The notes: generated by a model from the letters alone, not told the origin. DNA of 64,000 bases from Spirochaetia bacterium (GCA_965208575.1 CBDBOV010000006.1:1280001-1344000), one strand, 5' to 3'; positions 21,259 to 35,397 are shown, counted from the stretch's first letter. Translations and numbers: made by a program.

Positions 21259-22020
21259 CTACGGGCGGGTCGTTCGCCGGGTGTCGCGGTAGTGCTTGCT
21301 CGGCGGCTGCAGGATCTGGCGCTGGCGTTCGGTCACGGCGAGCCCGTCGGCTGCCGGGTAGTTGTGGCTCCAGGCGCCGCCGCGGTGGTGGTACTTGTAG
21401 AACAGGGTGCGGCGCTCGTGGGCGCCGGACCACGGCAGCGGGCCGTGGGTGAGTGCCTCGGTAAACAGGACGGCGGTACCGGCCGGGCCGGTGATGCGCT
21501 CCACGAACGGCTGCCGGCCGGTCAGGTCGCGCAGGTCGCGCCACTCGGCCGGGAACGGGTAGTTGCTCTTGTGGCTGCCGGGCACGCACGCGAAGCCGCC
21601 GTCCTCCGGCCCCACGTCCGCCAGGTTGTAGGCCACCACGAACAACCCGCTGTACATGCGGCCATTGCGGAAGTCGTAGAAGTTCACCCGGTCGAACGGC
21701 GTGCCGCCGCCGTGCAGGGTGGCGCCGATCGGGCTCAGGCCGCTGCGGATCATGTCCAGGTAGACGTGATCGACGCGGAACCCGTCGCCCAGTATCTCGG
21801 TCAGGTGCGGCATCACCGGCGGGTTGTCGAGCAGGTCCACGAACGGCTGCCCCCAGGTCAACGGATTCATGAACCGGTGGGTGGCCTCATCCGGCCCCAT
21901 CCCGCGCGCGACATGTTCATCGAGCGCGGCGTTCAGACTCGCGACCTGGCCGGCGGTCAGCGCATCCGGAACCACCAGGTAGCCCTGCAGATCGAACAGG
22001 TACCGCTCTTGATCGGTCAT
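21259..22020 (-). CDS. Phytanoyl-CoA dioxygenase (PhyH) family protein
   Basis: YLFDLQGYL, LHGG, GGFACVPGSHK, FTEALTHG, RRTLFYKY. Confidence 0.88.
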   Translation of the reverse strand: MTDQERYLFDLQGYLVVPDALTAGQVASLNAALDEHVARGMGPDEATHRFMNPLTWGQPFVDLLDNPPVMPHLTEILGDGFRVDHVYLDMIRSGLSPIGATLHGGGTPFDRVNFYDFRNGRMYSGLFVVAYNLADVGPEDGGFACVPGSHKSNYPFPAEWRDLRDLTGRQPFVERITGPAGTAVLFTEALTHGPLPWSGAHERRTLFYKYHHRGGAWSHNYPAADGLAVTERQRQILQPPSKHYRDTRRTTRP

Positions 22021-22169
22021 CCGTCACGCTCCTCCATGCATTGCGCCGCACGTCACCAGGGCCACCCGACGCGTGCCGTCCGCAGAGGCGCGGCTCGCAC
22101 TCCACTCGACCATCCTGCACACCCGCGTGTCAAGCACTCGGGCGCTGTCAATTATTGTAGTATATTGCA

Positions 22170-23342
22170 TTGTTGTCATCGGATAATCGACATTACATTG
22201 AACGTCTGAAGCTTGTTCGGACGATCCGGCAGAATCTTGCCGAGGCCCCGATCGTTGCGTTGCTTGGAGCCCGGCAGGTCGGCAAGACGACACTCGCCCG
22301 GCAGGTCGCCGGCGGCTGGCCGGGCGGATCGGTGGTATTCGACCTGGAACGTGCTGCGGTGCGGGAGGCGCTGTCGAGTACTCCCGAGCGGTTGCTGGGC
22401 GGCCGCGAGGGCCTCGTGGTGATCGACGAAGTGCAGCGCCTGCCAACCCTGTTCGAAACGCTGCGCCCGATCGCCGACGACCCGGCACGGAAGGCGGTCT
22501 TCCTCCTGCTCGGCAGTGCGTCCTGGGACCTGGTTCGCGGGATCTCCGAGACCCTCGCGGGCCGGATCCTGTTCGTGGACGTGGGCGGATTCTCCCTGGC
22601 CGAAGTGGGGCCGGCAGGTCAGGACCGGCTCTGGATGCGCGGCGGATTTCCGCGCGCCTGGCTGGCTCCGTCGGCGCCGGCGTGGACCCGGTGGATGCGA
22701 TCCTTCACGCGCACGTTCCTGGAGCGCGACATTCCCGGCCTGGGCTCGAGGGTGGCTCCCGAAGCACTCGGTCGCTTCTGGCGGATGCTCGCGCACCGGC
22801 ACGGCCAGCTCTGGAACGCCAGCGAACTCGCCCGGTCGATGGCCATGAGCGTGACCTCCGTAAACCACTACCGGGACCTGCTCGCCGGCACTTTCATGAT
22901 CCGCGTGCTGCCGCCGTGGTTCGAGAACGTCGGCAAACGCCTGGTCAAGTCGCCGCGGGTCTTCCTGCGCGACAGCGGCATCGTGCACTCGCTGCTCGGC
23001 ATCGACGATCCCGAACAGTTGCCGATGCACCCGGTCTACGGTGCAAGTTGGGAGGGGTTCGCGGTGGAACAGACGCTCCTTGCCCACGGCGGGCACGAGG
23101 CGTATTTCTACCGCACCCAGCGCGGTGCGGAGCTCGACCTGATGCTGCTGCGCGGCGGCAAGCGGTTCGGATTCGAGTTCAAGTGTTCCGACGCACCCCG
23201 GACGACCCGTTCGATGCACCTGGTATCCGACGACCTCGGGCTCGCCCACCTCTGGGTGATCTATCCCGGTGACCTGGAGTACCCCCTCGGCAACCGAATC
23301 ACCGCCCTCCCCCTCAAGCAGATCCCCGATCTCCGACTGTAG
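22170..23342 (+). CDS. AAA_14 ATPase with DUF4143 (C-terminal nuclease-like) domain
   Basis: GARQVGKTT, IDEVQ, LLGSAS, SETLAGR, GGFP, VKSPRVFLRDSG, YRTQRGAELDL, FEFK. Exact start uncertain. Confidence 0.9.
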   Translation: MLSSDNRHYIERLKLVRTIRQNLAEAPIVALLGARQVGKTTLARQVAGGWPGGSVVFDLERAAVREALSSTPERLLGGREGLVVIDEVQRLPTLFETLRPIADDPARKAVFLLLGSASWDLVRGISETLAGRILFVDVGGFSLAEVGPAGQDRLWMRGGFPRAWLAPSAPAWTRWMRSFTRTFLERDIPGLGSRVAPEALGRFWRMLAHRHGQLWNASELARSMAMSVTSVNHYRDLLAGTFMIRVLPPWFENVGKRLVKSPRVFLRDSGIVHSLLGIDDPEQLPMHPVYGASWEGFAVEQTLLAHGGHEAYFYRTQRGAELDLMLLRGGKRFGFEFKCSDAPRTTRSMHLVSDDLGLAHLWVIYPGDLEYPLGNRITALPLKQIPDLRL

Positions 23343-23462
23343 CGTTCCAAAGGAGGTTGGTGGCGCCGCAGCACCTCCTCGCCTGTCACCACCGCGGCTG
23401 ACTGCCGCTCGACGCGCCCTGCTACTGGATGCTCACACACCGGCAGGCGCGGCCGGCCGGCG

Positions 23463-23906
23463 TTGACCGCGTTGACCCGCGTTGACCACTCCCACTTGCT
23501 CCGCGTCGCGGAGATGCAGAGGGCATCTGCAGATGCGACGCATCCCGCACACGGCGCGGCGCTGCGATTCATGACCAGAAAGCACTATCGGCACGTATAC
23601 AGTCCCCGCCCCGATCACTACTATATGTCACCGGATCCTGGAGAGACCGTCTACCGATCGTTAGTTGAGGTATGCGGGAAGGAGAACGTGAAACATCATG
23701 TCAACTATGATGTCGGCGGACTACCTGACTTTCCGGTTGAACTGGACGAAGAAGTGGTGGTTTCAGCTTCGTCAGTGTCGGATGTGCTGCAACAAAATAT
23801 GCCGCTAAGTTTCGATTCCGTTTTCGTGGCGCCAGAGGTGGCCAGTCACGCACGTGGTTATCTGAAAGTCAACACACGAAGGATACTTGAAGGAAGTTCA
23901 TCATGA
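23463..23906 (+). pseudogene. Probable C-terminal remnant of an HD-domain phosphohydrolase (HD motif absent)
   Basis: Lower GC, no credible start, no HD motif. Stop overlaps a YwgA-like gene, the usual partner of HD dNTPase-like genes. Confidence 0.5.
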
Positions 23907-24475
23907 ATCATGAGAAGGCGTTAGATTCAACTCGCAATGCAGCAGTTATCGGCGTCTTGGTTGCGGAGTTGAGGAAGGCGGATAACTGGTGTGGCGAGAC
24001 CCATGTTCAGAAGGCCGTGTACTTCCTGCAGACTGCTTGTCGGGTACCGATGGGCTATTCGTTCGTACTCTACAAGCATGGACCTTATTCGTTCGACCTT
24101 AGGGTGGATACAGCAAGGCTATTGGGACGCCGCATGTTGAAGCAGGAGCCGTCAACCCCACCCTACGGGCCTCGACTGAAAGCCACCACGATCATGACAA
24201 AGCATGTGGAACGCCACCGTGAAGCGATCTTTCACCACCTGGAGGAGGTCACACGTGTAGTCCAGTTTGTTGGTAGGCGGGGAGTTGGCGAACTGGAGAG
24301 GCTGTCAACGGCGCTCTACGTCACCATCCAACAAGACAAACATTCGATGGAATCCCGAGCGGAACGTTTACATCACCTGAAGCCGCATGTCTCGGTAGAA
24401 TCCGCGACCGCGGCAGTCAGGGAACTTGACGCATCGTCCATCTTCAAGAGCCCGTACTCTGGTGCCTCTGGATAG
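23903..24475 (+). CDS. YwgA/SocA(DUF4065)-like protein
   Basis: GETHVQKAVYFLQ..FVLYKHGPYSFDL..LERLST. Confidence 0.7.
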   Translation: MNHEKALDSTRNAAVIGVLVAELRKADNWCGETHVQKAVYFLQTACRVPMGYSFVLYKHGPYSFDLRVDTARLLGRRMLKQEPSTPPYGPRLKATTIMTKHVERHREAIFHHLEEVTRVVQFVGRRGVGELERLSTALYVTIQQDKHSMESRAERLHHLKPHVSVESATAAVRELDASSIFKSPYSGASG

Positions 24476-24530
24476 ATCCGAAGTGTAGGGAGCACCCCAC
24501 CGGCGTGCGGCCGGCGCAGTAGTAGTTGTT

Positions 24531-24982
24531 GGTGAGCCGATTACGCCACCGACCAGTATCGAAGAGATCGATACGCCCCATGGGTATACTCTGGTGTCCG
24601 TCCCCTTGATCCGCCTGTCGGGCCGTAGCGTGCAAGCGAATCTCACGCTCGACGAAGGCGTTGCAGCGTTCATCGACGGCGGAGCGCGACGCCGGAAGAT
24701 GACACGGACCGCCTACATCGAATGGATGGCTCGGCGAATCGCCCAGGCCGGCGGATAACTGGATCAGGTTCTCCCCAAAGCAATACTGACCGCGGCTGCC
24801 CACGTGTCGTGGCTTCCCAAGCTGCTGGAGAAAGGTGGCGTGGTGGAGCAGCTCGATGCCGTCTTCGGTGATGCGGTCGTGGGGGTCCAGGGAGACGACG
24901 ATGCGGCGGCCGGTCTCCGGGTGATCGGCATTCAGCTCGCGCAGCCCCTTGGCGTGATCGGCGCGCACCCGGCTGACCGCCT
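24531..24982 (+). repeat. Diverged direct repeat of 28624-29089 (3' part of hicB, spacer, 3' tip of AAA-DUF4143 gene)
   Basis: Long near-identical alignment, e.g. tccccttgatccgcctgtcgggccgtagcgtgc and gcagccccttggcgtgatcggcgcgcacccggctgaccgcct. Confidence 0.93.
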
Positions 24983-25123
24983 GTCTACGCTGAAGACTCG
25001 GCCGGCTCGGTGGTGATGAACCACGCTCTTCCAGAATCCGGGGCAGATGTCGAACGAGTAGTACAGATTCTTCGCCGTGATGAAGACGTCCGAATCTACG
25101 ATGTACGTCAGATCCACCCTCAC
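24983..25123 (-). pseudogene. DUF4411 (PIN-like) gene truncated by the repeat
   Basis: YIVDSDVFITAKNLYYSFDICPGFW..VFSVDR then runs into the AAA repeat. Confidence 0.8.
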
Positions 25124-26274
25124 GGGAGACTCACGCCCAGTCGACGGGCGTACTTCTGAAACGTTCCTCCGCGCAGCCCTGTCAGGTCATAGGCTTCCTT
25201 GAAACCGATACGGCCCTCCATCGCCGCACGCAGCACCTGCGTCGCAAACAGTTCGCCTATACGCGTGTTCTGGTTGTTGTAGAAGTCGCCGCCTCCACTC
25301 GGTTCGGCGCCACTCTCCTTGCGGTTCGGACTGACGTAGCGCTCGTAGAACTCGGCAAAGGTGTTGCGCTCAACCAGATGCAGGTCGAGAGCACGGCGGG
25401 CGGCAACCACGGGGCTTACCTTGAACCTTCGGGCGAGAGCATCGAAGGGCTTGCCCTGGCGTCTGACTTCTGCCCAACGCGCTCTAACCTCCTGTGCTGG
25501 CGCAAGGAACTCCGCCGCCGCTCGGTTGCACCAGTCCTCCACGTTCGTGCCGCGGGGGAGCAGACCATCAAAGCCGGAGACGCCTTCCGAGCCGAGCCAT
25601 ACGTGCGCCAACTCGTGAGCAAGCGTGAACATCTGTGCCGACTTCGCGTCGGCACCGTTCACGAAGATCAGCGGCGCATGGGAATCGGTAAGCGCGAAGC
25701 CGCGGAATTCCTCTACGCTCAGCCGGCGCGAGGTGTTGTTGCCCACGACCCCATTTATCACAGCCATCACGCCGAGTTGCTCGATCGTGCGGCGCAACTC
25801 GCTCACTGCGACCTGCCAAGTGGCCACTTCCACGCCCCATCCTTCGCCGAGACCGAGCGTCCGTCGCATCTCGCGACCCACAACTTCCGGCTCATCGGCA
25901 AGCCGGGCACTTGCCACGAACGTCAGCGGGGCCACGTCGTTCTCGACGAGGGTTTCCCGTAGCCACTCCTGCCGACGTTGCATCGTGTAGAGCGTGTCGA
26001 GCAAATCGGGGCTCGGCGTGCCTCGCGTCGTGCCCGCCACGGTGCGATAGTCAGGCACTGGAAGGCGTTCGGCCGGGGGCTCGGGGAGGAAAAGGTAGCC
26101 GAACGGCGTATGAGTGAGTTTGGCAAGCTTCTCCAGCTGCTTCAGCGTTGGTTGTCCCTCGCGCCGGACCCAGGCCGGGAGTTGTGGCATGCGCTTGGCA
26201 AGGCGCGCAACGTCGAAGCCGGCACGTTCACAGGCCCAGCGAAGCATCTCCGGCGACACGGGGACGCGCGTCAT
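25120..26274 (-). CDS. XRE-HTH + ImmA/IrrE metallopeptidase
   Basis: MLRWACERAG..PTLKQLEKLA, EFRGFAL, FTLAHELAH, EDWCNRAAAEFL. Confidence 0.92.
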   Translation of the reverse strand: MTRVPVSPEMLRWACERAGFDVARLAKRMPQLPAWVRREGQPTLKQLEKLAKLTHTPFGYLFLPEPPAERLPVPDYRTVAGTTRGTPSPDLLDTLYTMQRRQEWLRETLVENDVAPLTFVASARLADEPEVVGREMRRTLGLGEGWGVEVATWQVAVSELRRTIEQLGVMAVINGVVGNNTSRRLSVEEFRGFALTDSHAPLIFVNGADAKSAQMFTLAHELAHVWLGSEGVSGFDGLLPRGTNVEDWCNRAAAEFLAPAQEVRARWAEVRRQGKPFDALARRFKVSPVVAARRALDLHLVERNTFAEFYERYVSPNRKESGAEPSGGGDFYNNQNTRIGELFATQVLRAAMEGRIGFKEAYDLTGLRGGTFQKYARRLGVSLP

Positions 26275-26424
26275 GCCCGTCTCCCCGCGGCACCAACCCG
26301 ACTGGACCGGACGTGGAACACACCGCCACAGTCCTTGCCCGATTCTTCGACGATCACGGTCATTCCGGCGGACCTCGGAATCCTATCAATGATCGGCTGC
26401 TTGCGCCTGCCCGCGGCCCGAACT

Positions 26425-27576
26425 TCAGAACAGCGCGCCTTCCCAGAGCTGCTGGAGGAAGGTGGCGTGGTAGAGCAGGTCGATGCCGTCTTCGGTGGTG
26501 CGGTCGTGGGGGTCCAGGGACACGACGATGCGGCGGCCGGTCTCCGGGTGATCGGCCTTCAACTCGCGCAGCCCCTTGGCGTGATCGGCGCGCACCCGGC
26601 TCACCGCCTTCGCCTCCACCGCGCAATCGATGTGGTTGACCACGAAGTCGACTTCGATGCCCGAACTGAGCCGCCAGTAGAAGAAGTCGGCGTAGCGCGC
26701 CCGGTACGAGTTGTAGCAGCACAGCTCGTGGAACACCCAGTTCTCGAATGCCTTGCCAAACAGCTCGCCGCCCGGCTGCAGCGCCCCGCGCCGGGCCAGG
26801 AAGTTCACCACCCCCACGTCCCCGAAGTAGAACTTCGGCGCCGCCACCACCCGCCGCTTCGGCCGCCTGCGGTACGCGGGCAGGAACCGACCCAGGAGCG
26901 TGTCCTCCAGGATCTCGAAGTAGCCCCGCACCGTCTGGCTGGAGGTGCCGGTGTCGCGCGCGATGGTCGTGTAGTTCACCACGTCACCGTCGGAGAGGGC
27001 GGCGAGCGCGAGGAAGTCCGCGTAGGCGGGCAGGCGCCGCACCAGACCCTCCGCAGCGATCTCCTCCTTCAGGTACTGGGAGACGTATGCGTCGAGCAGC
27101 GGCAGCGGGCGCTCGGCGTCGTATATGGGCGGCAGGTATCCGTGGTTCAGCAGTCGGACCAGGTCGACTCCCGGTCCGATCTCCATCGCCGACAGCCCAT
27201 GCAGCTCGCGCCGCTCGCCGCGCCCGCCGAGGAGGTTTGCCTGCCCGCGCCGCACCTTGCGCGCGCTCGATCCACACAACGCGAAGTGCACGCCGCGCCG
27301 CTCCATGAGCCAGTGCACCACATCGAGCAGCTCCGGCACCTTCTGGACCTCGTCGATTACGATGAATCCGGCACCATGCCGGTGCTGCTCCTCGATCAGC
27401 AGTTCCGGAGTCTGCAGATAGCGCCGGTAGGTCGCCGGCAACAGCAGGTCGACCCACGGCACGCCGGGAAACTCGGCTCGGAGCAACGTGCTCTTGCCCG
27501 ATTGCCGCGGCCCCCAAAGGAAGAACGTCCCCTGTGGATCCCCACGCAACCCGAGCAATCTCGTGTACTCTCCCAT
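26425..27576 (-). CDS. AAA_14 ATPase with DUF4143 domain (intact copy)
   Basis: GPRQSGKST, IDEVQK, CGSSARK, APKFYFGDVG, YWRLSSGIEVDF, VEAK. Confidence 0.92.
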   Translation of the reverse strand: MGEYTRLLGLRGDPQGTFFLWGPRQSGKSTLLRAEFPGVPWVDLLLPATYRRYLQTPELLIEEQHRHGAGFIVIDEVQKVPELLDVVHWLMERRGVHFALCGSSARKVRRGQANLLGGRGERRELHGLSAMEIGPGVDLVRLLNHGYLPPIYDAERPLPLLDAYVSQYLKEEIAAEGLVRRLPAYADFLALAALSDGDVVNYTTIARDTGTSSQTVRGYFEILEDTLLGRFLPAYRRRPKRRVVAAPKFYFGDVGVVNFLARRGALQPGGELFGKAFENWVFHELCCYNSYRARYADFFYWRLSSGIEVDFVVNHIDCAVEAKAVSRVRADHAKGLRELKADHPETGRRIVVSLDPHDRTTEDGIDLLYHATFLQQLWEGALF

Positions 27577-27651
27577 GATAACTTGAATATTACATGAAAA
27601 TCGAAAGTTCCGCTACGCACGCATGCACGAACAACCGCTGACGACACGATT

Positions 27652-27887
27652 CGGCGGCGGTTCCGGGGAGCCCCTGCACGCGCGGCCTCCGGTGGATGGG
27701 TGCTTGCGCCGATGAGCAGGTCACCCATCAACGGCCCCTCGCGCATTTCAGCGGCCCGGCTCGGGCACTCGAGCACGGAACAGGAGCGCGGTGCCGCGCT
27801 CGCGGTGGCCGCCGACCGCGGCGGGAACGAACAACGCTTCGCCGTCGCGGCACTCTCCAACGAGCGTCCCTGTGCGTCTGCGGTCGT
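27652..27887 (-). repeat. Diverged, frameshifted copy of the manA 3' end plus downstream spacer (matches about 29349-29587)
   Basis: gtcacccatcaacggccc..gcgcatttcagcg..ccggctcgggcact..gagcacggaacag..gccgaccgcggcgggaacgaaca shared. 2-nt insertion (cactctccaacg vs cactccaacg). Confidence 0.92.
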
Positions 27888-27894
27888 TCCACTG

Positions 27895-28066
27895 GGGCGT
27901 CGGCGCATCTCCGGCGGAGCCCTCACGACGAGATCGACGGGATTCTCGACCTCACTCTGCGCGCGATTTCGAGAGCTTGCGCGATGCCGGTGCTGCTGCG
28001 CTCCATGATTACGAGCAAGTCGACATCCGAGTCCTCGGAAGCCGTGCCGTAGGCATGAGAGCCGAA
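27895..28066 (-). pseudogene. Minimal nucleotidyltransferase (MNT antitoxin-like) remnant
   Basis: Manual translation FGSHAYGTASEDSDVDLLVI..ALEIARR, frameshift, then PVDLVVR. No start codon. Confidence 0.75.
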
Positions 28067-28251
28067 TGCTCGCCGGCCCGCAGGCCGCCGACCTGGCCGC
28101 GCCCTGAGCGACGGCTACGTCAACGTCCCCCTCGGCCCCGGCTTCGGCGTCACCCTGGGACGAAGCCAAGATCCGCACCCACGAACTCCCCAAGCCCCAC
28201 GGACGCCGGCTGTCCGGGCCCAGAAGTCCGTGCTAATATATGCACGCGGCG

Positions 28252-28440
28252 ATGGTTGAAACCAGGACCAGCGACGTCAGGCGTCGATTGCTGAGGGATG
28301 AGTGGTACCTCGATCGCCACGGAGCCAACCACGACATCTATCGGCATCCGACGATCAAGGGCATTATCACGTTGCCCCGCCACAAGCAACTCTCGGTCGG
28401 GGTCGCGCGGTCGATTGCCAAGCAAGCTGGCTGGTCGTAG
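28252..28440 (+). CDS. hicA: HicA-family toxin
   Basis: RRLLRDEWYLDRHGANHDIYRHP..ITLPRH..GVARSIAKQAGW. Confidence 0.85.
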   Translation: MVETRTSDVRRRLLRDEWYLDRHGANHDIYRHPTIKGIITLPRHKQLSVGVARSIAKQAGWS

Positions 28441-28449
28441 GGCCGGCCC

Positions 28450-28851
28450 ATGGAGGATGTGCGCGTGACCAGATATCCAGCCTGGATCGACGGAGAGCGA
28501 GGCTCCTATGGCGTCTCGTTTCCTGATCTCCCCGGCATCGTCGCCATGGGCACGACGGTGGACGAGGCATTGCTGCATGCCGAGGAATCACTACGCGACT
28601 ACGTGATCGAGACCGAGAGAGACGGTGAGCCGATCACGCCACCGACCAGTATCGAAGAGATCGAAACGCCCACCGGTTATACCCTGGTCTCCGTCCCCTT
28701 GATCCGCCTGTCGGGCCGTAGCGTGCGTGCGAATCTCACGCTCGACGAGGGCGTTGCAGCGTTCATCGACGGCGAAGCGCGACGCCGGAAGATGACACGG
28801 ACCGCCTACATCGAATGGATGGCTCGGCGCATCGCCCAGGCCGGCGGATAA
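28450..28851 (+). CDS. hicB: HicB-family antitoxin with C-terminal RHH
   Basis: YGVSFPDLPGIVAMGTTVDEAL..RANLTLDEG..ID..ARRRKMTR. Confidence 0.9.
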   Translation: MEDVRVTRYPAWIDGERGSYGVSFPDLPGIVAMGTTVDEALLHAEESLRDYVIETERDGEPITPPTSIEEIETPTGYTLVSVPLIRLSGRSVRANLTLDEGVAAFIDGEARRRKMTRTAYIEWMARRIAQAGG

Positions 28852-28904
28852 CCGGATCAGACTCTCCCAAGCACGACTGACCGCGGCTGCCCACATGGAG
28901 TGGC

Positions 28905-29350
28905 TCAGAACAGCGCGCCTTGCCAGAGCTGCTCCAGGAAGGTGGTGTGGTGGAGCAGCTCGATGCCGTCCTCCGTGGTGCGGTCGTGGGGGTCCAGGGA
29001 CACCACGATGCGGCGGCCGGTCTCGGGATGATCGGCCTTCAGCTCGCGCAGCCCCTTGGCGTGATCGGCGCGCACCCGGCTGACCGCCTTTGTCTCCACC
29101 GCGCACTCGATGTGGTTGACCACGAAATCCACTTCGATGCCCGAACTGAGCCGCCAGTAGAACAAGTCGGCGTAGCGCGCCCGGTACGAGTTGTAGCAGC
29201 ACAGCTCGTGGAACACCCAGTTCTCGAATGCCTTGCCGAACAGCTCGCCGCCCGGCTGCAGCGCCCCGCGTCTGGCCAGGAAATTCACCACTCCCACGTC
29301 GGAGCAACGTGCTCTTGCCCGATTGTCGCGGCCCCCAAAGGAAGAACGTC
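28905..29350 (-). pseudogene. Deleted copy of the AAA-DUF4143 gene 26425-27576
   Basis: Walker A segment (FFLWGPRQSGKSTLL) is joined directly to the last ~130 codons. About 660 bp internal loss plus loss of the start and promoter. Confidence 0.9.
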
Positions 29351-29447
29351 GGCGTCGGTCCCGGGGAGATTCTGCACGCGCGCGGGCTCTGCTGGGTCGG
29401 TGCTTGCGCCGATGTGCGGGTCACCCATCAACGGCCCGTCGCGCATT

Positions 29448-30680
29448 TCAGCGACCCGGCTCGGGCACTTGAGCACGGAACAGAAGCGCGGTGCCGCGCA
29501 CGCGGTAGCCGCCGACCGCGGCGGGAACGAACAGCGCTTCGCCGCCGCGGCACTCCAACGAGCGTCCTTGCGCGTCTGTGACGGTCGCTTCGCCATGGAG
29601 GAAAAGCAGGATCTCCGGGCCGGTTGTGTTCGGCGCGAACACGGATTCGCGCTGCAGGCGGTCGAGCGCCACCGACGAGAGCGCGAACTCCGCCGCCGGA
29701 GTCGGGTAGCGCCGCTCGCCGTTGGCGTCCGCCGCCGGGTTCAACACGCCAGCCTCCTGAGGTTCGAAGCGGGCCACGTGCAACAGCTCCGGAACGTCGA
29801 CGTGCTTCACCGTCAGGCCCCCGCGCAGCACGTTGTCGGAGTTGGCCTGCAACTCCACCGCCGTTCCGCTCAGCGCGGCGTGCAGCGTGCCGGCTCCGGT
29901 GAAGGTTCCCTCGCCCGGTGCCAAGCGCACCACGTTCAGCAGATACGGACTGAGCACGCCGGCGTCACCGGGGTAACTTGCGGCCAGCCGTTCCACCCAG
30001 CGAGCCGCAGCTTCGGCGCCGGTTTCGAGACCGCCGCCGCGGAGTTGGCTGGCGGCGTGCTCCGCGGTGTGGGACACCAGGTCGGCACGTTGCCGGTCAT
30101 TCAACTGCAGCGCCGTCGCCAACAGTGAGCCCAGCGCTCGCGCCGTCGGGCGCTCGCGCAGCGCGGCGGTCGCCGCTCGCAGGTCCGGCACGTCGACAGA
30201 CTCCAGGTGCCGGACCAGCTCGGCGTAGGGCCGAAAGCCGCTCATCATCCAATACGGTTCCAGCGCCACCGCCAGTTCCGGCTTGTGGTTGCGGTCACGG
30301 TAGTTGCGGTTCGGCGCGTCGGGCGGGATGGCGGCCGCCTGCTCGCGCGCGAACCCCTCCGCCGCCTGCGCCAGCGAGGGATGCGCCTGGATCGACAGCG
30401 GCTCCGCAACGGCGAGTATCTTGAGCAGAAACGGCAGCTCCGTTCCGAACCGCTGCACGGCCGGCCCGAGGGTCTCGGCGGGGCGCTCGGCCACCAGCCG
30501 GTCCAGCTTGATGCGGCCACCGGCAACCGTAACGGCCGACGGTGCCTGCGGATGCGCCCCGATCCACAGTTCCGCCTCCGGTTCATCAGCCGGTGGCCTT
30601 CCCTGCAGCCTGGCAAGCGCCGTCTTCGAGCCCCACGCATAGTGCTGGATCGGGTTGTCCAACTTCAGCAGACCGAGCAT
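29448..30680 (-). CDS. manA: Mannose-6-phosphate isomerase, class I
   Basis: QHYAWGS, AELWIGAHP, LPFLLKIL..PLSIQAHP, NYRDRNHKPEL, ANSDNVLRGGLT. Confidence 0.96.
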   Translation of the reverse strand: MLGLLKLDNPIQHYAWGSKTALARLQGRPPADEPEAELWIGAHPQAPSAVTVAGGRIKLDRLVAERPAETLGPAVQRFGTELPFLLKILAVAEPLSIQAHPSLAQAAEGFAREQAAAIPPDAPNRNYRDRNHKPELAVALEPYWMMSGFRPYAELVRHLESVDVPDLRAATAALRERPTARALGSLLATALQLNDRQRADLVSHTAEHAASQLRGGGLETGAEAAARWVERLAASYPGDAGVLSPYLLNVVRLAPGEGTFTGAGTLHAALSGTAVELQANSDNVLRGGLTVKHVDVPELLHVARFEPQEAGVLNPAADANGERRYPTPAAEFALSSVALDRLQRESVFAPNTTGPEILLFLHGEATVTDAQGRSLECRGGEALFVPAAVGGYRVRGTALLFRAQVPEPGR

Positions 30681-30685
30681 CCGGC

Positions 30686-31627
30686 CTACGGCCCCTCCTC
30701 GCTGACGGCGGCAGCGTCTCGCCGGCCGCGGGGCGGGGCGCGGAACACCTGCCTAGTGTGCCACGCGACGTACCGGCCGGCAGGCTCGCGGGTCCCCTCC
30801 TGCGGTGGCCGTATAGGGCGGTCGTGGTAATCCAGGAGCCAGCGCACCGCCGGGCTCATGCCATGCACCTCGCGCGAGACCAGCAACCGCCAGCCTGAAC
30901 CGCGTTCGTCCTCCGCCAGACCGATTGCTCCGCGGTCGAACGCGCCATGATGGAACGTACACAACGCCAGTCCGTTGGCAACCTGATCGGGACCGCCGTG
31001 GGAGTGCCACTGGATGTGAGCGGCTTCGAGACCGAGCAAATCGTCCCTGAGACGCAGGTCGAAGTCGCACACCGCGCACCGCCGCTCGTATGCCGTCAGT
31101 ACCGCCTCGCGGAAGTGCGGGTCGCGGCGCGGACGGGGAGTGACCCTCTCCTCCACCTCGGGAACTCCCCACAACCCGACCGCCTCCAGGATGTGCTGAT
31201 GCATGGAGGCAGGAAAGTGCTGGTCCAGAATCCACCGAGCTTCCGCCAGCGCTCGACCAGGGTTGTCAGCCAGTTCGCGAAACAGTGGCTCGGGTAGGCC
31301 TCCGGTGACGCCTCTCTCTCGTAGCTCTTTGATGTGGAAGTCACCACCCGTCGTCCGCGTAAGCGAGGAAACCTCAGGCACTTCCCACAACTCGTTTTCC
31401 AAGTGCGAAAATGGATACACCGGACGAGGTGATCGCGGGGTGCCGAAATGCCGAAGCAGACCAACCAACTCACTCTCGATGTCGCGGAATCGCACCAACC
31501 GATCTCGCCCACGCAAGGCCCAACCCATTGCCAACAGCAAGAGCAGTGGCTTGTGAGGTGCGCGCCTGCCACCTTTCCGCCACACCTTGAGCTTGGTGAG
31601 TCTGTGGTGGAATTCATCCAAGGTCAA
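30686..31627 (-). CDS. HNH endonuclease with probable N-terminal sulfur-binding domain (phosphorothioate-dependent restriction-like)
   Basis: RAPHKPLLLL..PVYPFSHL N-terminus. RDPHFREAVL..CAVC..LEAAHI..NGLALC..HH.AFD HNH domain. Confidence 0.8.
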   Translation of the reverse strand: MTLDEFHHRLTKLKVWRKGGRRAPHKPLLLLLAMGWALRGRDRLVRFRDIESELVGLLRHFGTPRSPRPVYPFSHLENELWEVPEVSSLTRTTGGDFHIKELRERGVTGGLPEPLFRELADNPGRALAEARWILDQHFPASMHQHILEAVGLWGVPEVEERVTPRPRRDPHFREAVLTAYERRCAVCDFDLRLRDDLLGLEAAHIQWHSHGGPDQVANGLALCTFHHGAFDRGAIGLAEDERGSGWRLLVSREVHGMSPAVRWLLDYHDRPIRPPQEGTREPAGRYVAWHTRQVFRAPPRGRRDAAAVSEEGP

Positions 31628-31738
31628 TTTGGAACCCTCTGTCCAGGAACTATGACATAAGAGCCCGGTGAACCGGTAGTCAGCGCCGGATGAGAGTCGG
31701 TTGAGGTTGCCGAACCCTTCTGAATCGGCAGGTCTGTA

Positions 31739-31915
31739 TCATGGGATGCGGAAGTTCCTGGCTTTGTAGAATTGGAAGTCGGAGATGCAGGGAATCTTCA
31801 CTTGCCCTGCAGAGGCCTCGGCAATCAACCAGTCCCAGAACGGCCGGATGCGATCGAGCGGGTAGTAGTCCTCATGGACGCGGGTCAGCACATTCGCATC
31901 AAGCAGGTACAGCAC
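31739..31915 (-). pseudogene. DUF4411 (PIN-like) gene with a large in-frame internal deletion
   Basis: LYLLDANVL..YYPLDRIRPFWDWL..GQVKIP joined directly to a C-terminal-like CISDFQFYKARNFRIP. Only 58 codons. Confidence 0.7.
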
Positions 31916-31917
31916 GA

Positions 31918-33159
31918 CTATCCCGACTGCCGCGTTGGACTTCCAGCCACCAATCCGCCCAAGAGCGGCTCTACGCCGCTGGGCTTCACGCCAAGGATCA
32001 GGGCGGCCTTGGTGTGGGTCAGTTCGTTGGACCTCAGGGCGCGGCCGACGAGTTTGATCAGTGGTCGACCGAGACGATGCTTTCGGAGCGTGTAATAGGT
32101 GGGACCGGTTCCCGCGGATTCCTGGCGTAGTTCGCGGCGACGGGGTCGTGCAGCCTGCCACCGTGCGGCGTATGCGGCCGCAAGTCGTCGGTAGACCTCG
32201 GCGTCAAGCGCGCCGGTACGCCAGTAGCGGTACGCCACCATCGCTTCGCTCACGTTGCGGGCAGCGGCGACTTCGCTGATCTGGTCCGCGGCGGCGTCCA
32301 CGGTGTGTCCTTGGCGAAGTCTGGGAAGGGAGTTGTGCGGAAGAAGCACTTCGCTGGCGACGTCGTTGCAGAATCGCTCCACGCGCGCTCGGTGGGTGCG
32401 TGGCGGGACTGCAGTAGGAGCGGCACTCACACCGGTAGATCCGGTATACACGTGGACGAATTCGTGGATGAGCGTAAACGACTGGGCCGCGGTTGCATCC
32501 TGGTCATTGATGATGATGAATGGCGCAATCTGATCGGCAACTGCAAATCCTCGAAACACCCGTTCATCGAGATTGGTATGGTGGGAACCAAGATTCCCCA
32601 CCAGCAGCACGAAGACACCAAGCGCTTCGACCCGTTCTCTGAGAGTAGCGAATTGCACGGCTGAAGAGGCAACACGCGCATGACGCGTTTCGTCGAGGTG
32701 GAGAGCGACGCGAATCGTTGCAGCCGCGTCCTCTATCGGCTCGGTGATGGGCATCGATCCAACGAAGGAGAGGCTCTCGGCGTCATCGTCATCTTCGAGG
32801 ATGGACCTGACCAGGTCCTGACGCACGCGCGTAGCGCGGAGAAGCGCGTCGAGCAGGGGTTCGCTCTTGTCGGTCGCTCCGCCGACGGACCGGAAGTCCT
32901 CGCCGCGGATGCCCGGAACGGGAGGTGCGGTGCGATAGAACGCCGTCAGAGGGCGCCGGTACGTCGCCGCGATCTTGAGCAACTGGTTCCGCGTCGGTTT
33001 CGCCTCGCCCCGTTCGAGAGCTTCCAGTCGCGCCGCCGAAGCGCGCCTGGCCCTTGATGTGAAGCCAAGTCGCAGCGCGGCTTCGTCGAGCGACATCCCG
33101 GCAGTCTCGCGTGCCCAATTCAAGATAGATGGGTTGATGTTCTCAGCGCGCGGAGTCAT
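31918..33159 (-). CDS. XRE-HTH + ImmA/IrrE metallopeptidase
   Basis: INPSILNWARETAG..PTRNQL, VFRGFA, FTLIHEFVH, ERFCNDVASEVL. Confidence 0.9.
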   Translation of the reverse strand: MTPRAENINPSILNWARETAGMSLDEAALRLGFTSRARRASAARLEALERGEAKPTRNQLLKIAATYRRPLTAFYRTAPPVPGIRGEDFRSVGGATDKSEPLLDALLRATRVRQDLVRSILEDDDDAESLSFVGSMPITEPIEDAAATIRVALHLDETRHARVASSAVQFATLRERVEALGVFVLLVGNLGSHHTNLDERVFRGFAVADQIAPFIIINDQDATAAQSFTLIHEFVHVYTGSTGVSAAPTAVPPRTHRARVERFCNDVASEVLLPHNSLPRLRQGHTVDAAADQISEVAAARNVSEAMVAYRYWRTGALDAEVYRRLAAAYAARWQAARPRRRELRQESAGTGPTYYTLRKHRLGRPLIKLVGRALRSNELTHTKAALILGVKPSGVEPLLGGLVAGSPTRQSG

Positions 33160-33280
33160 GTCTCTCTGCAGTCAGCATCAGCGTCCTTGCAGCCCTGTCC
33201 CCATTATATTGCCGTTGCCCGCTACTGGGCACAACTCGGCGCGCGATCACGTAGTCGGCGGCCTCCAGGATTCAACGCCC

Positions 33281-33310
33281 TTGCATTGGTACTACAAATG
33301 TAGTTATAGT
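33281..33310 (+). promoter_or_regulatory. brnTA promoter (TTGCAT / TATAGT) with palindromic operator ACTACA-aa-TGTAGT (33291-33304)
   Basis: Sigma70-like hexamers 18 nt apart, with a perfect 6-bp inverted repeat between them. Confidence 0.6.
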
Positions 33311-33323
33311 TGGATAGGGACAA

Positions 33324-33593
33324 ATGTTCGAGTGGGATCCCGTCAAGAACCAATCCAACATAGAGAAGCACGGGGTTTCCTTCGAGACTGCCAAACGCAT
33401 CTTCGATGGCCCCGTAGCATCTGGGGTCGACACTCGAGAGGACTACGGTGAGGAACGCTTTATCGGCATCGGCCGGGCCGCGAACGCTGTTCTTGTCGTC
33501 GTCTATACCTATCGGGGAGAGAACACTCGATTGATCTCCGCCCGGCCGGCAACCCGTACGGAACGGGGGAAGTACAGTGACCAGATACAATAA
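33324..33593 (+). CDS. brnT: BrnT-family toxin
   Basis: FEWDPVKNQSNIEKHGVSFE..YGEERF..VVVYTYRG..RLISARPA. Confidence 0.92.
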   Translation: MFEWDPVKNQSNIEKHGVSFETAKRIFDGPVASGVDTREDYGEERFIGIGRAANAVLVVVYTYRGENTRLISARPATRTERGKYSDQIQ

Positions 33594-34140
33594 ACCGCTC
33601 ACACCCGACCAGATTGCCGCCATCCAGGACAAGGATATCGACCTCAGCGATATCCCGGAGCTCGACGATGACTTCTGGCAGGAGGCCGAGGTGAAGTTCC
33701 CTGATCTCACCGAGCAGGTCACCTTACGCGTGAAGGGCTCGGTGCTGGCCCACTTCAAAGCCTCGGGGAAGGGCTATCAGACCCGAATCAATCAGGTGCT
33801 CGAAGGCTACGTGCAGGAAAGCAAGCGACGCGCAAGGCGACAGGCCCGGCAGGACCCGGCGGTCAAGGCGATTGCAGAGTTTCAGAAGTTCTGGAAGGAG
33901 AGTGCCGCTGCGCAGATAGAGCGTGCCGCGGCCGGAGAGATGCAGAAGTTCTTGAAGGAGAATGGCGTGGCCACGATAGAGAGTGCCGTAGCCGCGGTGG
34001 CCGGGGAAATGCAGAGGCTCTTGAAGGAGGGCTTCGTGGCCACGATGGCCGCAGAGATGCAGAAGCTCCTGAAGGAAAGCGACGCGGCCACGATGGAACG
34101 TTCCGCCGCCGAGGAGATGCAGAGGAACCGACATCGATGA
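33577..34140 (+). CDS. brnA: BrnA-family antitoxin with an atypical repetitive C-terminal extension
   Basis: DIDLSDIPEL..VTLRV..VLAHFKASGKGYQTRINQVL, then ~4 copies of an EMQK.LKE..AT.E repeat. Confidence 0.85.
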   Translation: MTRYNKPLTPDQIAAIQDKDIDLSDIPELDDDFWQEAEVKFPDLTEQVTLRVKGSVLAHFKASGKGYQTRINQVLEGYVQESKRRARRQARQDPAVKAIAEFQKFWKESAAAQIERAAAGEMQKFLKENGVATIESAVAAVAGEMQRLLKEGFVATMAAEMQKLLKESDAATMERSAAEEMQRNRHR

Positions 34141-34305
34141 CGCGGACACGCAGCCACGGACCGATTATTGCGGTGTTGTAGACGCCGAGCGTAGGTCAGA
34201 AGCTCGCCGGACCGGCGGTCGCCCGGTGTCTACAAGCCCCGCCCGGCCACCAGGGCACGGTCGAACCGGTAGTCAGTGGTGTGCGGGGGCGGGTATCGTA
34301 GCGGC

Positions 34306-35397
34306 ATGGTTCGGTTTGGGATCATTGGGACCGGCGGGGTGGCCGGGGGCGGGGCGCGGGATCTTGGCGAGAACCCGGAGGCGGAGCTGATCGCGGTGGC
34401 CGATCCCAGCGGCGAGCGGCGAGCGGCGTTCGGGAAGCGGTTCGGGGTGCCGCACGTGCTCGAGAGCGCCGACCAGTTGCTGGACCTGGACGCGGTGGAC
34501 GCGGTGTACATCGCGGTGCCCAACTACCTGCACGTGCCGCTGGCAGCGCAGGCGCTGAACGCCGGCAAGCACGTGATTCTGGAGAAGCCGCTGGCCCTGA
34601 GCCGGGCCGACGCGGAGCCGCTGGTGGAGGCCGCGCGCGGGGCCGGTACCCACTTCATGCTGGGCATGAACCAGCGCTTCACGCCGCACGTGCAGCGCGC
34701 CCGCGGGCTGGTGGCGCAGGGACGCATCGGACGCGCCTACCACTGCAAGACCTACTGGCGCCGGCGGGCGGGCATCCCCGGCATCGGGAGCTGGTTCACC
34801 CGCAAGGAGATGTCCGGCGGCGGCGGGCTGCTGGACATCGGCGTGCACATGCTCGACAACGCCCTCTACATCCTGGACAACTTCGCCGTGCACTCGGTGT
34901 CCGGCGCCACCTACCGCGAGTTCGGCCCGAACGGCACCGGCGAGGGCGGCTATGGGCTGTCGGAGCGCACCGATGCGGCGTTCGACGTGGACGACTTCGC
35001 CACCGCCCTGATCAAGCTCGCCGGCGGCGCCACCGTGCTGATCGACGCGGTGTGGGCGATGCACAACGGGCGCAGGAGCGAGATGAACATCGAGCTGTAC
35101 GGCTCGGAGGGCGCCATCGACACCTACGGCGACAAACTGTTCCGCCAGCAGGGCAGCGAGTACCACGCCATCGAAGGCCCCGACGCCGGCCCGCTGCCCT
35201 ACCCGCACACCAGCCGCTTCCACCACTTCGTGAACGTGATCCTCGGCCGCGAGCAGCCGTGCGTGACCCTGGAGCAGGCACTCGCCGTGCAGCGCGTGAT
35301 CGACGCCATCTACGCCTCCGCGGCGAACGGGAAGGAAGTGCTCCTGAGCGGGGACGCTGCAAGCGGGACGCCGGCAGGCGAACCGGCACGCAAATAG
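34306..35397 (+). CDS. Gfo/Idh/MocA oxidoreductase
   Basis: GIIGTG, AVPNYLH, GKHVILEKP, GGGGLLDIGVHMLD. Confidence 0.93.
   Translation: MVRFGIIGTGGVAGGGARDLGENPEAELIAVADPSGERRAAFGKRFGVPHVLESADQLLDLDAVDAVYIAVPNYLHVPLAAQALNAGKHVILEKPLALSRADAEPLVEAARGAGTHFMLGMNQRFTPHVQRARGLVAQGRIGRAYHCKTYWRRRAGIPGIGSWFTRKEMSGGGGLLDIGVHMLDNALYILDNFAVHSVSGATYREFGPNGTGEGGYGLSERTDAAFDVDDFATALIKLAGGATVLIDAVWAMHNGRRSEMNIELYGSEGAIDTYGDKLFRQQGSEYHAIEGPDAGPLPYPHTSRFHHFVNVILGREQPCVTLEQALAVQRVIDAIYASAANGKEVLLSGDAASGTPAGEPARK

Follow-up and report, generated by a model that had tools for sequence, protein, structure and literature searches.

Layered Organization of the Segment Downstream of manA

How do toxin–antitoxin (TA) and defence genes come to lie several deep beside a housekeeping gene without a recombinase among them? 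This question is raised by the segment 24531–29587 at the 3′ end of manA, within a stretch of 64,000 nucleotides (nt) from Spirochaetia bacterium (GCA_965208575.1 CBDBOV010000006.1:1280001-1344000), hereafter the window, in whose 64-kb numbering coordinates are given. The host belongs to a sponge-associated, high-GC genus of Spirochaetia, and the genome carrying the stretch (G000) is a metagenome assembly of 6.5 Mb in six N-free contigs (95% complete, 5.75% contamination). The genomes compared are denoted G001, G003, G006 and G007, sequencing runs X1–X22, and two JGI contigs L101 and L102. An earlier interpretation (the sequence-only reading) had described the segment as a stack of cassettes and its repeats as alleles from different strains. 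According to the present analysis, the segment is a three-layer pile of partly deleted alleles of a single hypervariable TA/defence slot. The gene map, compiled from open reading frames (ORFs), Pfam, PADLOC, NCBIfam and tblastn with a 19-protein panel, is as follows from manA downward:

29448–30680, minus strand: manA, class I mannose-6-phosphate isomerase, intact (Pfam PMI_typeI_cat, E 1e-30)
28905–29350, minus strand: AAA_A, dead AAA_14-DUF4143 gene (repeat alignment, tblastn)
28450–28851, plus strand: hicB antitoxin, intact, layer A (Pfam HicB_lk_antitox, E 3.4e-19)
28240–28440, plus strand: hicA toxin, intact, layer A (Pfam HicA_toxin, E 2.5e-13)
28067–28204, plus strand: enolase-superfamily (MR_MLE) 3′ tail, 138 nt, stop codon lost (9-copy alignment)
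27883–28066, minus strand: internal fragment of an MNT nucleotidyltransferase antitoxin gene (tblastn, residues about 27–69)
27651–27886, minus strand: m_B, second manA 3′ end plus downstream spacer (88.0% identical to 29349–29587)
26425–27576, minus strand: AAA_B, intact AAA_14-DUF4143 ATPase-nuclease gene (Pfam DUF4143, E 2e-29; AAA_14, E 8e-16)
25120–26274, minus strand: IrrE/ImmA-type metallopeptidase, RmrA-like, intact, with a truncated partner gene (Pfam Peptidase_M78, E 2.6e-15)
24980–25123, minus strand: DUF4411 stub, the first 48 of 174 codons, ended by the joint with the AAA tip (tblastn)
24813–24982, minus strand: a4_C, third AAA-gene 3′ tip, layer C (94.7% identical to AAA_B)
24531–24758, plus strand: hicB_C, second hicB, C-terminal 75 codons, layer C (93.5% identical to hicB_A over 245 nt)

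Each layer starts with a conserved anchor, full or truncated (the 3′ end of manA, the AAA_14-DUF4143 gene or both), followed by cargo that differs between the layers, namely, hicAB, IrrE with DUF4411, or a hicB remnant. Layer A comprises manA, the deleted AAA_14-DUF4143 gene and hicAB; layer B comprises the manA 3′ fragment, the intact AAA-DUF4143 gene, the IrrE/RmrA-like gene and the 48-codon DUF4411 stub; layer C comprises the AAA tip and half of hicB. The anchors, manA 3′ end and AAA gene, are present 2–3 times at 88–98% identity. Only hicAB, one AAA-DUF4143 gene and the orphan IrrE-type gene are intact within the stack, the remainder being debris.

In a blastn self-comparison of 20–38 kb, five pairs of direct repeats with identities of 88–98% were found near manA:

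24531–24982 and 28624–29089: direct, 88.9% over 468 columns with 3 gaps, E 1e-176
26425–26820 and 28905–29300: direct, 93.9%, no gaps
27478–27529 and 29299–29350: direct, 98.1%
27651–27886 and 29349–29587: direct, 88.0%
24813–24982 and 26439–26609: direct, 94.7%

Inverted repeats of at least 40 nt were absent from the repeat search. In a search of the whole genome, the repeats matched only each other at identities of at least 88%, the next best matches being paralogues of 64–80%. Compared with copy B, the copy at 28905–29587 lacks 658 nt (26821–27477 in B) and 121 nt (27530–27650 in B). Thus, the self-comparison reproduced both repeat pairs of the sequence-only reading, with their coordinates and the two deletions, and its gene calls for manA, AAA_14 plus DUF4143, hicA, hicB, the MNT fragment, the frameshifted manA remnant and IrrE were recovered. 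Its layers stood as well, with the 138-nt enolase-superfamily tail, which it had overlooked, to be added; its DUF4411 assignment was right as to the family, which is represented by only the 48-codon stub at 24980–25123.

The manA gene was well supported (TIGR00218, 233.6 bits against a cut-off of 116), and tblastn detected one full copy and one fragment of it in G000. The repeat copy m_A (29349–29587) consists of the last 140 nt of manA and the downstream spacer, and the coding remnant of m_B (27748–27886) is frameshifted by a 2-nt insertion. In AAA_A, a Walker-A piece (29299–29350) is fused, in a different frame, to the final 132 codons (28905–29300), with 658 nt missing internally and 121 nt, including the start codon, missing in addition. 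AAA_B is predicted to be a candidate defence gene of the PADLOC type PDC-S01 (PDLC04790, E 5e-53), and DUF4143 appears in a listing of the PD-(D/E)XK superfamily (PMC3424549). It should be added that AAA-DUF4143 genes are abundant in G000 (with AAA_B as the query, tblastn gave 25 hits at E ≤ 1e-10), and that relatives with 60–66% amino acid (aa) identity occur in metagenome-assembled genomes (MAGs) labelled as many phyla. The hicA and hicB genes, adjacent on the plus strand and 9 nt apart, are a predicted type II HicAB pair, whereas hicB_C lacks both its N-terminal half and hicA. The IrrE gene matched RmrA profiles with E-values from 1e-11 to 3e-5 (PADLOC best, E 1.4e-11); in comparison with the Rosmer type (RmrA/RmrT), the partner here is the DUF4411 stub, which is 93.8% identical to residues 1–48 of the full DUF4411 of G001 (tblastn), and the latter (Pfam DUF4411, E 7e-43) had no PADLOC match. 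The MNT fragment lacks its HEPN partner; an intact MNT/HEPN pair was confirmed by Pfam in G007. In a4_C, which also falls within the 88.9% repeat shared with layer A, a 1-nt deletion near the end alters the last codons.

The enolase tail was aligned in nine copies (mean column identity of 80%). The corresponding full gene of G007 was assigned to the enolase superfamily (MR_MLE_C, E 1e-58), and no full orthologue was found in G000, where the best matches were paralogues with 25–33% identity. In relatives, the slot is bounded on its far side by this gene, of which G000 has kept only the tail. The manA gene, which the sequence-only reading had taken as the anchor, does have its 3′ end repeated, and the AAA gene and the enolase-family gene are anchors as well, not manA alone.

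Divergence and Phylogeny of the Copies

The overlapping parts of AAA_A and AAA_B (396 nt) differed at 24 sites, distributed over the three codon positions as 7/0/17, which corresponded to rates of nonsynonymous (dN) and synonymous (dS) substitution of 0.027 and 0.193, respectively, and to a dN/dS ratio (omega) of 0.14. For hicB_A and hicB_C (225 nt), the differences by codon position were 1/3/9 and omega was 0.25, a value based on only 10 changed codons. The copies of the non-coding spacer were more diverged, with about 84% identity (by eye from the alignment). The third-position bias claimed in the sequence-only reading was therefore borne out in both genes, and dN/dS, the check it had named beforehand, was low; an even spread of differences over the codon positions, which it had associated with duplication and decay in situ, was absent, the differences lying mostly at third positions.

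Compared with G006, the dS values of the AAA, IrrE and hicB genes were 0.20, 0.17 and 0.14, respectively, and that of manA was 0.59. Judging from these values (0.14–0.20 against 0.59), the cassettes appear to be younger than the flank. AAA_B and its G006 copy were 94.3% identical at the nucleotide level. In trees of the 3′ part of the AAA gene, built on 396 columns first with 16 and later with 18 rows, the A copy of the window was sister to a G006 fragment (support 81–82/90), the C copy (a4_C) was sister to a G001 fragment (support 89–90/94–95), and the B copy, 96.7% identical to a G006 copy, adjoined the sequence of G006 contig C61. A single clade of the three window copies was rejected by the approximately unbiased (AU) test (p = 0.023). 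Taken with the low omega and the cassette dS below that of manA, the rejection of the three-copy clade suggests that the window copies probably diverged in separate lineages while still functional.

Joints and Mobility Genes

The six joints of the stack (24982, 27886, 28066, 29300, 29350 and the start of hicB_C at 24530) are abrupt, with overlaps of 0–4 nt, as assessed by comparison with intact parent sequences from relatives. Microhomology amounted to 1–2 nt at the deletion joints of AAA_A (29300 and 29350), 2–3 nt between DUF4411 and the AAA tip (24982), about 4 nt (CGAC) between MNT and the manA fragment (27886), and 0–1 nt between MNT and the enolase tail (28066); the abrupt start of hicB_C follows 85 nt of filler (24446–24530, between the distal flank and hicB_C), for which no parent sequence was identified. 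No core sequence common to the six joints was found. All six are illegitimate joints, and they lie beside long homologous anchors.

The statement of the sequence-only reading that no recombinase or transposase is present held for the four profile families searched (PF00589, PF00239, PF00665 and PF01609), which had no match within the window and 17, 0, 58 and 63 matches, respectively, in the G000 genome. The nearest recombinase- or transposase-family matches lie at C6:1251346–1262860, 17 kb or more ahead of the window, and the nearest PF00589 match (C6:1257454–1257936) is about 47 kb from the stack. The island regions retrieved from G001, G006 and G007 were likewise free of PF00589 matches. In G003, three tandem tyrosine-recombinase genes (C5:2711398–2713842) are located about 9–12 kb past the slot. 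No tRNA gene was detected in the window, no Rfam family was matched, and none of the 11 short inverted repeats of 22000–34500, obtained in a general search with no dedicated attC model, fell within 24000–29600. A Ku homologue was detected in G000 (151.8 bits) with a model that matched one of 14 reference genomes. Homologues of ComEC and DprA, considered as evidence of transformation, were dropped, since the models matched 10–11 of 14 control genomes. As a separate observation, about ten partial PF00589 matches, mostly to profile positions 24–139, lie amid many diverged direct repeats at C1:143441–205821 of G000.

The Slot in Related Genomes and Metagenomes

With the 8.3-kb stretch as the query, a match was obtained in 33 of 41 genomes (G000 counted), and the manA neighbourhood was mapped in four of ten same-genus genomes. 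The borders of the slot in relatives are manA and an enolase-superfamily gene in convergent orientation, and comparable stacking was present in three of the four genomes inspected (G001, G006 and G007), with additional full or partial enolase, AAA or manA copies between differing cargo. The gene orders were as follows:

G007 (one contig), first half: GFO oxidoreductase, HNH, manA, AAA fragments, another AAA-DUF4143 type, full AAA, hicBA
G007, onward: AAA fragments, HigB, MNT-HEPN, full convergent enolase gene, DarG-like gene, unknown gene
G001 (one contig): manA 5′ fragment upstream of HNH, full manA, distant second manA 3′ fragment
G001, rest: one full enolase gene and four fragments, two MNT, three AAA fragments, IrrE and full DUF4411
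G006: PhyH gene and AAA gene flanked by two full enolase copies, then hicB and AAA fragments
G003: HNH facing the enolase gene, without manA and without AAA
JGI contigs L101/L102: manA fragment, N-truncated AAA, HigB, full AAA, IrrE, DUF4411, 40-nt AAA tip, enolase, DarG-like gene

Thus, cargo downstream of manA varies among relatives, as the sequence-only reading had anticipated, and an identical structure in relatives, named there as a contrary sign, was not encountered. The 5′-truncated enolase copies a, b and c of G001 differed from the full copy d by dS of 0.11–0.17 with omega of 0.16–0.21, and copy a differed from b and c by dS of 0.13–0.14 with omega of 0.09–0.14; omega between species was 0.15–0.26, the same as that between truncated and full copies of G001. 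Downstream of manA in contig C61 of G006 (L016 3837–11388), genes were observed for a class-V aminotransferase (cysteine-desulfurase-like), a DUF4007 protein and a 1160-aa protein, a set which we take to resemble an Ssp-type DNA phosphorothioation system.

An allele of a different structure was found in run X1, which belongs to another study: a 3450-nt contig in which 27626 is connected to 29349 through 23 other letters carries manA, the complete spacer and the intact beginning of the AAA gene at 95–96% identity, and further X1 contigs lead from an intact AAA gene into hicB. This allele is, as far as its contigs indicate, an unstacked manA-AAA allele, and it is not a simple recombinant of A and B, because the 121-nt segment missing from A is retained. 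Runs containing small parts of the stretch were labelled as sponge, coral-reef or marine metagenomes. In runs X2–X18, only small shares of words were found, and the X2 pieces were short (95–99% identity) and had no informative long-sided joint. An exact 28-nt scan of JGI metagenome contigs for the MNT/manA joint gave no matches, a result of little weight given that strains differ by ~5%.

Support for the Assembly

The stack lies on a contig of 1.66 Mb without N. In four runs of one sample, 0.92–0.93 of the sampled words were present; these runs are probably from the source sample and, therefore, are not independent support. Logan contigs of X19 and X22 bridged 22901–24626, 26761–27993, 27969–28719 and 29241–29740 at 100% identity, and these k-mer contigs covered five of the six joints (24446–24531, 27886, 28066, 29300 and 29350). 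Contig depth over layers A and B, manA and the HNH gene was 50–58 in X19 and 20–25 in X22. Loose ends at 23463, 29206 and 29238 represent alternative paths in the sample. Other apparent joints in X19/X22, such as 26661 to 29206 and 22068 to 30150, had sides of only 21–22 letters and were taken as shared k-mers or unrelated repeats.

Origin of the Layers

It is rather probable that the stack arose by sequential displacement through homology-anchored plus illegitimate recombination, followed by deletions. The incoming DNA, which would stem from a different strain or species within the genus or in some cases from a sister chromosome, would pair with a resident anchor (manA, AAA or enolase gene) in one RecA-type homologous crossover. 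The non-homologous end would be joined illegitimately, with 0–4 nt of microhomology, inside or beside the resident allele, possibly by Ku-type end joining. The former allele would be shifted distally with a truncated anchor retained, and later deletions would erode the redundant copies. We infer the order and direction of the events, the donors and the enzymes. Similar scars would be left by a Campbell-type insertion of a circularised fragment, as well as by unequal exchange between sister chromosomes followed by allelic replacement.

Several observations, besides the small number of changed codons in hicB, weigh against sequential displacement. The manA fragment, with ~3 synonymous and 4 nonsynonymous differences in its last 37 codons (by eye), offers too few to judge. 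The AU test did not reject a single clade of A and B (p = 0.057), and its alignment was short (396 columns, two rows under half filled), with the free tree inspected before the test. The low omega of the truncated copies could reflect later allelic replacement and not the layering event. Both polarities fit the map, with anchoring on the manA side or on the enolase side. Joint 24982 was not among the listed bridging pieces; the contigs that bridge the others are short, k-mer-based and probably derived from the source sample; and the left flank (22000–24626) was shallower, at 36.6–42 in X19 and 12.7–15.4 in X22, about 0.55–0.8 of the rest, so that part of the population may have a different left flank. 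The X1 evidence comes from contig tables only, with no donor allele recovered as sequence. In G001, enolase copies b and c were close (dS of 0.03); the two G006 enolase copies were 99.6% identical; and the full AAA gene and a fragment of G007 were sisters (97/93), as were the AAA copies of L101/L102. These near-identical or sister copies indicate that in situ duplication or gene conversion also acts at the locus. In addition, 601 local diverged repeat pairs (80–98.5% identity, at least 150 nt, within 15 kb) were counted in roughly 130 bins of 20 kb of G000, which implies that plain duplication of paralogues is frequent there. Repeat-rich examples in G000 (C1:120000–210000, C2:380000–400000 and C3:520000–560000) may be stacks or tandem paralogue families.

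The near-identical copies of the relatives, the A+B clade not rejected by the AU test and the abundance of local repeat pairs speak for a tandem duplication of a unit of manA 3′ end, AAA gene and cargo by unequal or illegitimate exchange between sister chromosomes, after which the copies would have long coexisted, with partial conversion or allelic replacement, and would finally have been deleted, no foreign DNA being required. Nevertheless, duplication in situ is rather unlikely to explain the stack, since omega is as low as 0.14–0.25 between copies one of which is now dead, and 0.09–0.21 among the truncated enolase copies of G001 and between them and the full copy. Moreover, the three-copy clade was rejected, every window copy is closer to a copy of another species, the cargo differing per layer is beyond duplication alone, and the allele of the X1 strain (95–96%) is unstacked and, given its 121-nt segment, no simple A × B recombinant. 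Thus, the attribution of the layers to alleles of other strains through anchored recombination, as given in the sequence-only reading, is partly supported: it is favoured by low omega, the rejection of the three-copy clade, the joints and the X1 allele, and is weakened by the A+B clade that was not rejected and by the near-identical copies in relatives.

Duplicated 3′ ends of target genes are typical of site-specific islands, and the stack might accordingly be read as decayed tandem integrative elements at the 3′ end of either manA or the enolase gene, which brought replacement gene ends and later lost their integrases. This origin is considered highly improbable: recombinases do exist in G000 (17 PF00589 matches) and 9–12 kb from the G003 locus, but PF00589 is absent from the window and from the fetched islands, resolvases are absent from the genome, the repeat unit spans the manA end, spacer and AAA gene at 84–98% identity with no short attachment (att) core, the six joints share no sequence, and there is no tRNA gene. 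Similarly improbable is a strain-chimeric misassembly, in which slot alleles of co-occurring strains were threaded into a single contig. The metagenomic nature of the assembly and its contamination, the three loose ends, the shallower left flank and the absence of joint 24982 from the listed bridging pieces speak for such an error, whereas the MNT/manA and enolase/MNT fusions, which are not producible by threading homologous bubbles, were bridged at 100%, the depths of layers A, B and manA resembled one another in X19 and in X22, the long contig contains no N, and comparable stacks occur in the single-contig chromosomes of G001 and G007 and in JGI contigs.

A further, very unlikely extension of sequential displacement is that the AAA_14-DUF4143 gene itself drives the stack: its predicted PD-(D/E)XK domain would cut at or beside its own locus and seed recombination, making it a homing-like, recombinase-free platform for cassette capture. 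This would explain why AAA is always the first gene of a layer, why its fragments are scattered through the slot in four genomes, and why its transfer between species outpaces that of the flanks (dS of 0.20 against 0.59).

Flanking Genes

Both sides of the stack carried further genes:

23463–23906, plus strand: unknown 147-aa gene, distal flank (ORF)
23903–24475, plus strand: DarG-C-terminal-like gene, 190 aa, distal flank (PADLOC, E 8e-11)
30686–31627, minus strand: phosphorothioate-DNA-dependent HNH restriction endonuclease (NF045808, 284 bits against a cut-off of 180)
within 31739–32161, minus strand: DUF4411 N-terminal remnant (Pfam)
31918–33159, minus strand: second IrrE+HTH gene (Pfam)
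33324–34140: brnT/brnA, upstream of manA

In the distal flank, the labels given in the sequence-only reading could not be upheld: the "YwgA" gene at 23903–24475 matched only the C-terminal part of DarG models, and weakly (NCBIfam, 37.7 bits against a cut-off of 250), and the "HD remnant" at 23463–23906 matched nothing in Pfam, PADLOC or NCBIfam. The DarG-like gene lies directly past the full enolase gene in G007, G001 and G003. The 147-aa gene is conserved in G007 (81% aa identity over 132 residues); its status as a remnant is therefore not demonstrated.

The proximal side of manA (30686–34140) was variable too. In G001, a manA 5′ fragment (residues 3–131; L013 4084–4482) lies upstream of the HNH gene, which indicates anchor duplication on the proximal side as well. 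The window contains the phosphorothioate-dependent endonuclease, and no genes like the phosphorothioation-like set of G006 were observed nearby. Four tandem copies of a 48–69-nt unit, 63–78% identical to the reference copy, were observed at 33870–34114 in the C-terminal part of the BrnA-domain ORF (33577–34140).

Comparison with Known Systems

Many defence and TA hotspots have no mobility genes, and their gain of cargo is usually ascribed only to allele replacement via flanking homology. In "core defence hotspots" free of mobile genetic elements, variable defence cargo is reportedly exchanged through homologous recombination at flanking core genes. A similar spread at flanking core genes is described for TA islets without mobility genes (PMC13617665). 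The locus studied resembles both in its fixed slot between conserved genes, variable defence/TA cargo, absence of mobility genes and flanking homology; however, those cases involve replacement via two homologous crossovers, whereas here the alleles are stacked, with anchor fragments and illegitimate joints as scars. The scars (duplicated anchor ends, microhomology joints and orphaned partners), together with three relatives and metagenome contigs, suggest a different route, in which one homologous crossover and one illegitimate joint stack alleles instead of swapping them.

As in integrons, cassettes would be added at one end and older ones pushed along; unlike integrons, the locus has no IntI, attI/attC or promoter-proximal expression logic, and its microhomology joints are random. 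The integron-like growing array suggested in the sequence-only reading is apt insofar as layers are stacked without an integrase, but most of the layers are debris, and the idea has already been printed for type VI secretion system (T6SS) and Rhs loci. In a limited search, no literature on such stacks at defence slots was found.

The closest parallel is provided by the T6SS orphan immunity arrays of V. cholerae, for which sequential displacement of effector-immunity modules was proposed (Kirchberger et al. 2017, PMC5361080) and which that paper itself compares with integrons lacking an integrase. As described there, the arrays likewise have a conserved upstream anchor, a proposed homology-facilitated illegitimate recombination, an old module shifted downstream as a remnant, members closest to genes of other strains, and no integrase. 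The Rhs and contact-dependent inhibition (CDI) loci, as cited within PMC5361080, contain strings of displaced orphan C-terminal toxin/immunity modules; they share with the stack a constant 5′ and a variable 3′ part, the displaced 3′ pieces keeping a constant stretch that enables recombination. Since displacement has already been proposed for these systems, the model is not new in kind. In contrast to the T6SS arrays, the cargo here consists of TA and candidate phage-defence genes and not of effector-immunity pairs; the anchors are the end of a housekeeping gene (manA), an enolase-family gene and AAA-DUF4143, with the anchor fragments themselves duplicated; and the displaced genes, in a sponge-associated spirochaete, are mostly broken and not useful orphans. 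In Rhs/CDI loci, displacement takes place inside one long toxin gene, whereas here it would involve whole small operons between separate genes. Because broken genes make up most of the locus and its host is an uncultured sponge symbiont, the value of the locus is evolutionary and mechanistic, not functional: it extends the displacement model of T6SS and Rhs loci to ordinary defence slots and supplies naturally formed junctions for testing that model.

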